In this document: piece after piece, positions 32,010 through 33,052 of the stretch
Layout of the letters: each line of letters opens with the position of its first letter
Numbering within the stretch: the first letter of the stretch is position 1
Origin: a virus
DNA: 38,922 nt
Direction: 5' to 3' (one strand)
Virus genome (UHGV): UHGV-2190349
The notes under the pieces: generated by a model
The model's database searches: none
What the model was told of the DNA's origin: nothing
Seen by the model: the letters and a program-made list of their open reading frames with translations, nothing else
Translations under genes and position numbers: made by a program

Positions 32010-32147
32010 ATGCTCAAGAAAGTCAAACGCCGACTTTACAAAGAAGGTAGATATTCATGCCAGTTGCCAAAATGCGACACAACAAAATGGAGTGTCGACG
32101 ATTGGTGTAACTGGATAGATAGATACGGAACTTGGTGGGATAAATAA
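32010..32147 (+). CDS. Hypothetical small Cys/Trp-rich protein
   Basis: 45-aa ORF below the track cut-off (MLKKVKRRLYKEGRYSCQLPKCDTTKWSVDDWCNWIDRYGTWWDK); weak, close Shine-Dalgarno. Confidence 0.3.
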   Translation: MLKKVKRRLYKEGRYSCQLPKCDTTKWSVDDWCNWIDRYGTWWDK

Positions 32148-32204
32148 CAGGTAACTTAAGCGTATTTACTTTCGCAGCAAACCACTTATTTGAGAGGAAT
32201 TAAT

Positions 32205-32828
32205 ATGTCATCAATCCGCTTAACTACGAGAATGAAAGAGGAAATCGCTCGTAACGCTTTAATTAAGTCTGGGGTCTTCACTGAACTTGAAGAAGTAACA
32301 AAGTTAAAGAACCAGCTTGCACTTGACGCCAGAGTTATTGCGTTTGGCGGTAAAAAGAAAACTGAGGAAGTGGATCAGTTATCATCCAAGTTGGTAGCTA
32401 TAAGTGAAGAACTTGAAAAGATGGGATGTTCATTTTACTCATACGATGTTAGTTCTACTTCAATTTATCTGACTGTATCTGGCAGAAGGGTTGGATGGCA
32501 TTCATATGGGAAAGACGGCAACGGCGAAGATATATTGCTCCCTACTCCGACCAAAGATAAATGCATGTTTAGCGCAGAACACGAAATAACAAAAAGGTTT
32601 GATGAAATCTGCGCATTGCAACAAAAACTTGAAGCCAAGAAAAAGGATATCGAATCAAATGTATGGGCTGCTTTGAACTCAGTCACAACAGTTAAGCGAC
32701 TTATTGAAGTTTGGCCTGAAAGCAAAGAATTGCTACCAAAAGAAGCAGATAAAGCAAGTACAGCACTTCCTGCTTTACGGGTAGAAGATTTGAATAAGAT
32801 GATTGGACTTCCTTCCGAGGCCGCATAG
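32205..32828 (+). CDS. Hypothetical protein (207 aa), AT-rich moron candidate between N and cIII
   Basis: Internal ATG with GAGAGG Shine-Dalgarno; followed by an intrinsic terminator; no recognisable family. Confidence 0.7.
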   Translation: MSSIRLTTRMKEEIARNALIKSGVFTELEEVTKLKNQLALDARVIAFGGKKKTEEVDQLSSKLVAISEELEKMGCSFYSYDVSSTSIYLTVSGRRVGWHSYGKDGNGEDILLPTPTKDKCMFSAEHEITKRFDEICALQQKLEAKKKDIESNVWAALNSVTTVKRLIEVWPESKELLPKEADKASTALPALRVEDLNKMIGLPSEAA

Positions 32829-32845
32829 TCGGCCTTTATTTTTGG
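32818..32845 (+). terminator. Rho-independent terminator (AGGCCG-loop-CGGCCT followed by T-tract)
   Basis: 6-bp GC stem around the stop codon of the 207-aa gene, then TTTATTTTTGG. Confidence 0.7.
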
Positions 32846-33052
32846 CATAAACAACAGAATAAACACTGCACTGTGTATTCATTCCAACGAGTGAATACAC
32901 GGAGCAATGTCGCTCGTAACTAAACAGGAGCCGACTTGTTCTGATTATTGGAAATCTTCTTTGCCCTCCAGTGTGAGGGCCTTTTTATATGCATACCAAT
33001 AACGCTTCATTCGAGGCGTTTTCGTTATGCAATCAAATATAAGGAGTTACCC

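Follow-up and report, generated by a model that had tools for sequence, protein, structure and literature searches.

The window analysed here is the whole 38,922-nucleotide stretch of UHGV virus genome UHGV-2190349. It is a nearly complete P22-like Escherichia coli phage or prophage with structural genes that resemble those of CUS-3, phiv205-1 and Kapi1, and with immunity, N and gene 36 of the Sf6 type. The gene studied lies in the early-left (PL) operon, on the + strand at 32205-32828, between the gene for the antitermination protein N (31669-32001, + strand; 110 amino acids (aa); PF11438, E 1.6e-26; phrog_271) and cIII, the next conserved early-left gene (33053-33187, + strand; PF08134, E 2e-30). 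The open reading frame (ORF) starts with ATG and encodes a protein of 207 aa (23.1 kDa, isoelectric point (pI) 6.2). Homologues begin at the same MSS/MTS, which supports the ATG at 32205, and a Shine-Dalgarno sequence, GAGAGG, can be read at 32192-32197 (+ strand), 7 nt before it. An original prediction made for this DNA had placed the same ORF, with the same ribosome-binding site, between N and cIII, and all of this is correct.

The prediction had also described the protein as belonging to no recognisable family. This does not hold. Against PF18757 (Nmad5, 'nucleotide modification associated domain 5') the protein scores 241.5 bits (cut-off 27; E 1.2e-71), and the alignment takes in all 206 positions of the profile; it also matches phrog_1965 with an E value of 5.9e-84. 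Proteins in NCBI and UniRef that are 95-97% identical to it carry the name 'Nmad5 family putative nucleotide modification protein'. Clear homology to a phage early protein, which the prediction itself had set against its reading, is therefore present at the level of the family. The family motifs (an N-terminal RLT, ..GG.., an FGGxR hairpin, LNSVTT.K.L, WPE..ELLP and a C-terminal LPA....LN..IGLP) are all found in the 207-aa protein and persist among family members down to 27% identity. No NCBIfam model matches the protein, and none of the Ral, Ocr and ArdA families is among its Pfam matches.

A search with the family profile gave 2,312 clusters at 50% identity. The matches listed are mostly single-domain proteins of about 200 aa; the 150 best representatives and 57 profile matches are mostly 190-220 aa long. 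There are no domain fusions among the listed matches, and every one of them with a precomputed Pfam annotation has PF18757 only. The name Nmad5 is taken to reflect an association with nucleotide- or base-modification genes. Literature searches for PF18757, phrog_1965 and DUF5484 (the family of the preceding ORF, see below) returned nothing, and no activity is reported for any Nmad5 member in the literature found. Among the top 15 of 59 papers found for mEp235, HK542 and PhiR12, none looked relevant; in one of them HK542 is used in OLD-defence plating assays.

The closest relatives are proteins of lambdoid phages. HK542 gp33 (AFH20414), HK244 HK24401 and mEp235 gp37 (AFM76255) occupy the same slot after N with the same flanks, and the window protein is a full-length match to this family. 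Its identity to the mEp235, HK244 and Stx1a phage proteins is 97-98%, and at the sequence level nothing sets it apart from the Nmad5 family. The original prediction had suggested a check for the gene in this slot of other lambdoid phages, and it is present there in HK542, HK244, mEp235, Kapi1 and Stx1a phages. The sequence family, and the module that recurs in lambdoid phages, are thus already on record, and as sequence the gene is ordinary.

Nmad5 DNA at 95% identity or more is present in 209 of 5,426 complete E. coli genomes (about 4%), where it is annotated as Nmad5. There are also 76 phage records that encode a protein 95-99% identical, among them mEp235, HK244 and Stx1a- and Stx2a-converting phages; comparison of DNA and annotation adds HK542, Kapi1 and PhiR12 to these. 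For junctions, alleles and neighbours we used 80 related loci, all of them E. coli prophage loci (L007-L086). The intact 624-nt ORF is kept in 77 of the 80; there are 63 distinct alleles, and the pooled ratio of nonsynonymous to synonymous polymorphism (pN/pS) is 0.32. Judged by its sequence, the ORF of 207 codons is a genuine gene that is kept under purifying selection and encodes a full-length Nmad5 protein.

The post-N copy of Nmad5 is interrupted in about 48 Stx2a-converting phages, near codon 34-37, by an element of the IS3 family of insertion sequences (IS) with HTH_Tnp_1 and rve ORFs; LC616047.1 (10600-13600; L187) is an example. As read from their disrupted frames, these copies are natural Nmad5 knock-outs. 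Additionally, a Dhillonvirus from which nmad5 has been deleted can still be assayed by spotting on its host (PMC11846954). The knock-outs and this deletion together argue that Nmad5 is dispensable.

An exchangeable cassette in the post-N slot

Shigella phage Sf6 and the window share 99.5% identity over 29699-32194 of the window, a segment that takes in the immunity region together with OL/PL, nutL, N and gene 36. Identity resumes at 97% over 32818-32986 (Sf6 3259-3428). The sequence between these shared flanks is 763 bp long in Sf6, with ral and gene 34, and 623 bp long in the window, with Nmad5. The two inserts occupy the same interval, with identical flanks and followed by the same terminator and bsq4, but they have no sequence similarity; the Sf6 cassette pairs a restriction alleviation gene of the lambda Ral type with a phrog_3054 gene. 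The original prediction of an accessory gene inserted in the early-left slot after N is borne out by this comparison.

The left boundary lies close to the gene. In HK542, mEp235 and 59 of the 80 loci the Nmad5-associated sequence starts at 32174, 31 bp before the ATG. The 21-bp stretch from there to 32194 (+ strand) is common to the upstream sequences of the Sf6 type and the HK542/mEp235 type, and is a plausible recombination junction.

On the right, junctions in the 80 loci cluster at 32858, 32873, 32986-32990 and 33029-33060. Mosaic junctions end at 32986-32990 in 28 of these loci and at 32873 in seven. The right flank of about 170 bp (32818-32986, + strand) is an inter-module boundary segment that holds a terminator hairpin, the element annotated in Sf6 as bsq4 and a second terminator resembling tL2A. 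A five-way alignment shows it unchanged in Sf6, HK542, mEp235 and a CB9615 prophage. Its first part (32813/32818-32850, 33-38 bases, which is all that the query covered) is also present in about 194 E. coli genomes that have no Nmad5, and there it follows ral and a 149-aa homologue of gene 34, or other small genes. By sequence comparison, then, the Nmad5 cassette (32174/32195-32817) is about 0.64 kb long, lacks a promoter and occupies an exchangeable post-N slot of the PL operon.

A further hairpin lies within bsq4, at 32871-32902 (+ strand). It has a perfect 14-bp stem (GTGTATTCATTC-caac-GAGTGAATACAC) and a fold energy of -24.9 kcal/mol (z -6.1), which was matched by none of 200 shuffled sequences. 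It has no T-tract and is invariant in the five phages aligned. It may serve in RNA processing or as a hotspot of recombination.

The original prediction likened the gene to occupants of this slot such as ral. Sf6 does hold ral there, but ral is directly upstream of Nmad5 in 10 of the 80 loci, so that mutual exclusion with ral was rejected. The Sf6 gene 34 homologue (phrog_3054), in contrast, is found with Nmad5 in none of the 80. Nmad5 therefore alternates with gene 34 rather than with ral, and the argument from the slot to an anti-restriction role is weaker than the prediction had assumed.

Transcription signals and base composition

The PL operon is arranged on the + strand in the order repressor, 158-aa ORF, N, 45-aa ORF, Nmad5, cIII and kil. 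The early-left promoter is at approximately 31268-31295 (+ strand), a position carried over from the Sf6 annotation 'putative early left promoter'; a simple promoter consensus scan of the window did not flag it. The nutL site at 31370-31400 (+ strand) is identical to the 'putative nutL' of Sf6 and consists of boxA (GGCTCTTAA) and a boxB hairpin (GCCCTGAAGAAGGGC) at 31386-31400, which the terminator and hairpin scan picked up as a hairpin on the minus strand.

The consensus scan found no sigma-70-like promoter upstream of Nmad5, where the short leader of the cassette leaves no space for one, and a simple terminator scan found no terminator-like site between PL/nutL and the Nmad5 stop codon. From the absence of a predicted terminator before the stop codon we infer that Nmad5 would be an immediate-early gene: N, the 45-aa ORF and Nmad5 would share one transcript from PL, and Nmad5 would be made at once on infection or induction, with no need for N antitermination, and would be silent in a repressed prophage. 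These pattern scans suggest that Nmad5 is probably co-transcribed with N.

The first intrinsic-terminator-like site after PL is at 32817-32846 (+ strand), and is found by the scan, by folding and by its conservation in the 80 loci. Its hairpin (32817-32836) has 7 bp, five of them G-C, and a tail TATTTTTGG, with the TAG stop codon of Nmad5 in the loop. The fold energy (-13.2 kcal/mol, z -1.6) is unremarkable alone, yet the hairpin is conserved in the related loci. The original prediction regarded it as the gene's own terminator, at 32818-32845. There is a hairpin with a T-tail at that position, but it is part of the shared boundary element, into which the last Nmad5 codons (GAG GCC GCA TAG) run. 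The same hairpin is present without Nmad5 after gene 34 in Sf6, after the 149-aa ORF in CB9615 and in PEC389. Two further sites lie between it and cIII. One at 32963-32990 (+ strand), identified by the scan and by comparison with Sf6, is homologous to the site annotated there as tL2A, and the other, just before cIII at 33001-33030 (+ strand), is a hairpin followed by a T-run (scan and fold, z -2.3).

The G+C content (GC) of Nmad5 is 40.2% (34.6% at third codon positions, GC3), compared with 51.4% for N and 48.2% for the window. This places the gene in the 2nd percentile of 624-bp windows overall and, among those of the early-left region, in the 9th. It is therefore AT-rich relative to N, as had been predicted, and relative to the phage average, but less distinctive among the early genes, several of which are equally AT-rich: kil (41.2%), the ORF at 33324-33479 (41.7%), an HNH gene (40.4%) and the 45-aa ORF (40.6%).

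The prediction took this composition as a moron signature. Nmad5 resembles the morons of lambdoid phages, in the sense of Hendrix and Juhala, in being present or absent between conserved flanks and, less distinctively, in a GC below that of the surrounding genome and a terminator-like hairpin at its 3' end. It differs from them in that it has no promoter of its own, is co-oriented within the PL operon and has a terminator that is shared with alternative cassettes. The leader of 31 bp, the absence of a promoter-like site and a terminator that is not specific to the gene suggest that Nmad5 is exchangeable but not a classical moron.

Protein structure, genomic context and possible functions

A confident, mostly helical model of the 207-aa protein was obtained with AlphaFold2 using 29 homologues (mean predicted local distance difference test score (pLDDT) 85.8; predicted template modelling score (pTM) 0.70). 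It has three long N-terminal helices (residues 8-72), a small beta region (86-121) and a long helix (127-158), followed by a small helical module (163-182), a disordered linker (184-191) and a terminal helix (193-199). A Foldseek search of the PDB gave no match below E 0.3, sequence and profile searches of the PDB were empty, and in a viral structure library the only matches were other unannotated Nmad5 proteins. By inspection, no membrane-spanning helix is evident in the model and no signal-peptide-like N-terminus in the sequence.

Conservation peaks in the C-terminal third (LNSVTT.K.L..WPE..ELLP ... LPA....LN..IGLP). Conserved positions in the N-terminal part are R5, K21, R43, G48-G49 and G93. 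Gly, Pro, Leu, Ala, Trp, Arg, Lys and Glu make up most of the invariant residues, and no known catalytic constellation of conserved His, Asp or Cys is found among the invariant columns. A DNA-mimic anti-restriction protein of the Ocr or ArdA type was considered and rejected on the near-neutral pI of 6.2 and the family median of 7.7.

The neighbourhoods of the family were compared in 23 lineages below 60% identity from collections of viruses and genomes, together with annotated phages and metagenome contigs with precomputed Pfam matches; the search of genome contigs contributed 13 loci only. In temperate enterobacterial phages Nmad5 lies just downstream of the repressor or of N, across many immunity and N types. 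Elsewhere it lies mostly beside replication and recombination genes. The N4-like phage Pollock has ThyX, Nmad5, a gp42-like exonuclease, primase, Sak4 and single-stranded DNA-binding protein (SSB), and prophages of Providencia, Morganella and Xenorhabdus have Nmad5 with a DUF2800 nuclease, an SSB of the Enc34 type, PolA and VapE primase. In Vibrio phage Athena1 the gene is just upstream of replication gene O, and in phage eiAU and a Guernseyvirinae phage it adjoins helicase/primase. The neighbours on five metagenome contigs (L188, L191, L192, L194 and L195) include SNF2 helicase, AAA_24, SSB, an Rv2179c-like exonuclease with PolA, and DnaB with nin genes. The commonest neighbour families in the 23 lineages are HTH and S24 repressors, PDDEXK_1, DUF2800, VapE, Enc34 SSB and AAA_24. 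There are also lone copies within head and tail modules, in Dhillonvirus Pandora71 (L177) and on the metagenomic contigs L189 and L190; L177 and L190 have it on the opposite strand, and in L189 it is divergent from the portal gene.

We favour the reading that Nmad5 is an early binding protein acting on DNA transactions, and give this a probability of roughly 0.4. Nmad5 would act by binding rather than by catalysis, and its binding surface would be the near-invariant C-terminal module (TT-K-[KR]-L..WPE..ELLP ... LPA....LN..IGLP). The target would be a component of DNA transactions, that is, a replication, recombination or nuclease protein of phage or host, or DNA itself, and Nmad5 would thereby condition or protect the phage DNA at an early stage of infection. 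A binding role is favoured because of the recurring replication and recombination neighbourhoods, the fold, which is not enzyme-like, and the conserved C-terminal module. The one published phenotype in the family, a Dhillonvirus substitution described below, would lie in this module too, as aligned to the window protein. With low certainty, we also take Nmad5 to be dispensable and to lie outside any base-modification pathway in this phage.

Several points weigh against this reading. It assigns function through guilt by association, and early regions are rich in replication genes anyway, so that the background is high. The lone opposite-strand islands in head and tail modules argue for an autonomous, host-directed accessory gene and not for the partner of one particular replication machine. 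The invariant R5, K21 and R43, the Gly-Gly pair and G93 could form a phosphate- or nucleotide-binding site, so that a catalytic role is conceivable. Finally, the evidence for immediate-early expression is a simple terminator scan.

It is possible, though somewhat unlikely, that Nmad5 is instead a dedicated counter-defence protein, an immediate-early factor that inhibits or evades one host immune system (restriction, a KAP-NTPase such as Tmn, or abortive infection) by direct binding. The slot holds ral in Sf6, expression probably precedes N antitermination, GC is low, the gene is dispensable with natural IS knock-outs, and lone opposite-strand islands are also seen for morons and anti-defence genes. 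A further point in its favour comes from the Dhillonviruses PhiSMS22/PhiSMA8, in which nmad5 K216E/K296E escapes the Tmn defence system and the cloning of nmad5 appeared toxic (Yamashita et al., 2025; PMC11846954). The Dhillonvirus gene belongs to the same Pfam family (Pandora71 homologue, 254 aa, PF18757 E 9.9e-54), its C-terminal WPE/LP...LN..GIP module is 34% identical to that of the window protein over 101 residues, and it too is dispensable. In the numbering of the 254-aa Pandora71 protein, K216 aligns to R165 of the window protein in the motif TTVK-R-LIEVWPE; from this alignment we infer that the two positions are equivalent, which would put a single escape substitution in the conserved C-terminal motif. 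The Dhillonvirus proteins differ from the lambdoid ones in their length (254-334 aa, with a large insertion or extension) and in the placing of their gene, which is an island on the opposite strand within the head module of a virulent phage. The Tmn-related phenotype, moreover, is that of a gain-of-function substitution in the Dhillonvirus copy.

Deletion of nmad5 in the Dhillonvirus gives no escape and leaves Tmn sensitivity unchanged, which indicates that the wild-type protein neither triggers nor inhibits Tmn (PMC11846954). In the 80 loci Nmad5 co-occurs with ral (10), Abc2 (47) and Gam (8) and thus does not replace those functions, and as a protein that is not acidic it is no mimic of the Ocr or ArdA type. 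Its length and motifs are conserved across very different phage groups, with synteny to replication genes in several lineages, which is unusual for fast-evolving anti-defence genes. PADLOC gave no match, from a library of defence proteins rather than anti-defence proteins. A counter-defence role and a role in DNA transactions are not mutually exclusive.

That Nmad5 is an enzyme of nucleotide or DNA base modification, or a subunit of such a pathway, so that altered phage DNA or an altered nucleotide pool escapes host nucleases or sensors, we regard as improbable. In M6/SN1-like Pseudomonas phages Nmad5 is listed in a thymidine-hypermodification cassette beside aGPT-Pplase (PMC9476957). ThyX or thymidylate-synthase-like genes are adjacent to Nmad5 in Pollock, a Yuavirus and L192, DpdA is about 3 kb upstream of it in phage MED16, and the invariant basic and Gly-Gly positions could bind phosphate. 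The association seen in the M6/SN1-like phages is absent from the window, where the PL and PR genes scanned include no nucleotide- or base-modifying enzyme, and no modification, hydroxymethylase, kinase, transferase or methylase partner was found among the window genes scanned; lambdoid Nmad5, including that of the window, is a gene alone, without the modification genes behind the family name. Neighbours of the modification type are rare elsewhere too. There is one ThyX and one dATP/dGTP pyrophosphohydrolase among 143 neighbours in the 23 lineages, and these single matches are all that nucleotide metabolism contributes to the 25 commonest neighbour families. As modelled, the protein is a bundle of helices that has no known enzyme fold and no conserved His/Asp/Cys constellation, and a protein of about 200 aa alone is unlikely to perform hypermodification.

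A prophage-expressed moron that confers superinfection exclusion or another lysogenic-conversion trait is very improbable: low GC, cassette-like exchange and the 3' terminator would fit it, and lambda and P22 have exclusion genes of the sieB type in this general region, but Nmad5 has a leader of only 31 bp with no promoter-like site, should be repressed in lysogens given its PL-operon orientation right after N, shares its terminator with cassettes that lack it, shows no evident membrane-spanning helix or signal-peptide-like N-terminus, and belongs to a family that is common in strictly virulent phages (N4-like, Dhillonvirus and Yuavirus), for which lysogenic conversion would be meaningless.

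A bolder proposal, which we consider doubtful, is that 'Nmad5' is a misnomer for a very widespread, non-enzymatic immediate-early protein (more than 2,300 clusters at 50% identity) outside base-modification chemistry, with an invariant C-terminal module that binds a conserved host component of DNA transactions or immunity. If this were true, host-takeover or counter-defence factors would gain a new family, and Tmn-like defences would be affected by this same surface. The remaining interest of the locus is modest and lies in the function of this very large family. The lambdoid gene offers a clean genetic handle on it, being a stand-alone cassette of 0.64 kb that has IS knock-outs in Stx2a phages and can be swapped against Sf6 gene 34. 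Thousands of phage genes would gain an annotation from a function found in HK542 or mEp235, which would also show whether the 'nucleotide modification' label is justified.

Other genes of the early-left operon

The ORF between N and Nmad5 (32010-32147, + strand) is the homologue of Sf6 gene 36 and encodes a DUF5484 protein (PF17583, E 2.6e-12, 46.7 bits against a cut-off of 27; phrog_1871, E 1.4e-22). It is preceded by a GAGGTGA ribosome-binding site. The original prediction described a basic 45-aa protein with four Cys and five Trp; the ORF, its basic character (pI 9.4) and the five Trp are as described, but there are three Cys. DUF5484 accompanies Nmad5 in only four of the 80 loci. Linkage of the two was therefore rejected, and they appear to be independent modules; by this comparison the DUF5484 ORF is a separate mobile module right after N. 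The annotators of Sf6 saw similarity of this protein to T4 orf 55.4.

At the start of the operon there is a repressor gene of the 434/Sf6 type (30175-30807, + strand), followed by the 158-aa ORF (30732-31208, + strand; phrog_2651), a homologue of Sf6 gene 38. This ORF lies after the repressor in the position of rex in lambda, and an internal start would give a signal-peptide-like sequence of 20 residues. It is a candidate for a prophage-expressed lipoprotein or exclusion gene. A search of 31000-33600 against Rfam gave a single match, which was antisense and sub-threshold.

After cIII the operon continues with kil (33172-33324, + strand) and, beyond it, genes for a Rad52-type annealing protein, an HNH endonuclease, SSB and Abc2, Ead/Ea22-like genes and a xis-like ORF. 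Near the xis end there is a 70-aa zinc-ribbon ORF (38378-38590) with a match to the Lar restriction-alleviation family that is below threshold (E 1.5e-4, 22.3 bits against a cut-off of 28.6). The HNH endonuclease gene (34287-34754; phrog_59, E 1.6e-32) is located between the annealing protein and SSB genes and is present in just three of the 80 related loci; it is probably a homing-endonuclease insertion.

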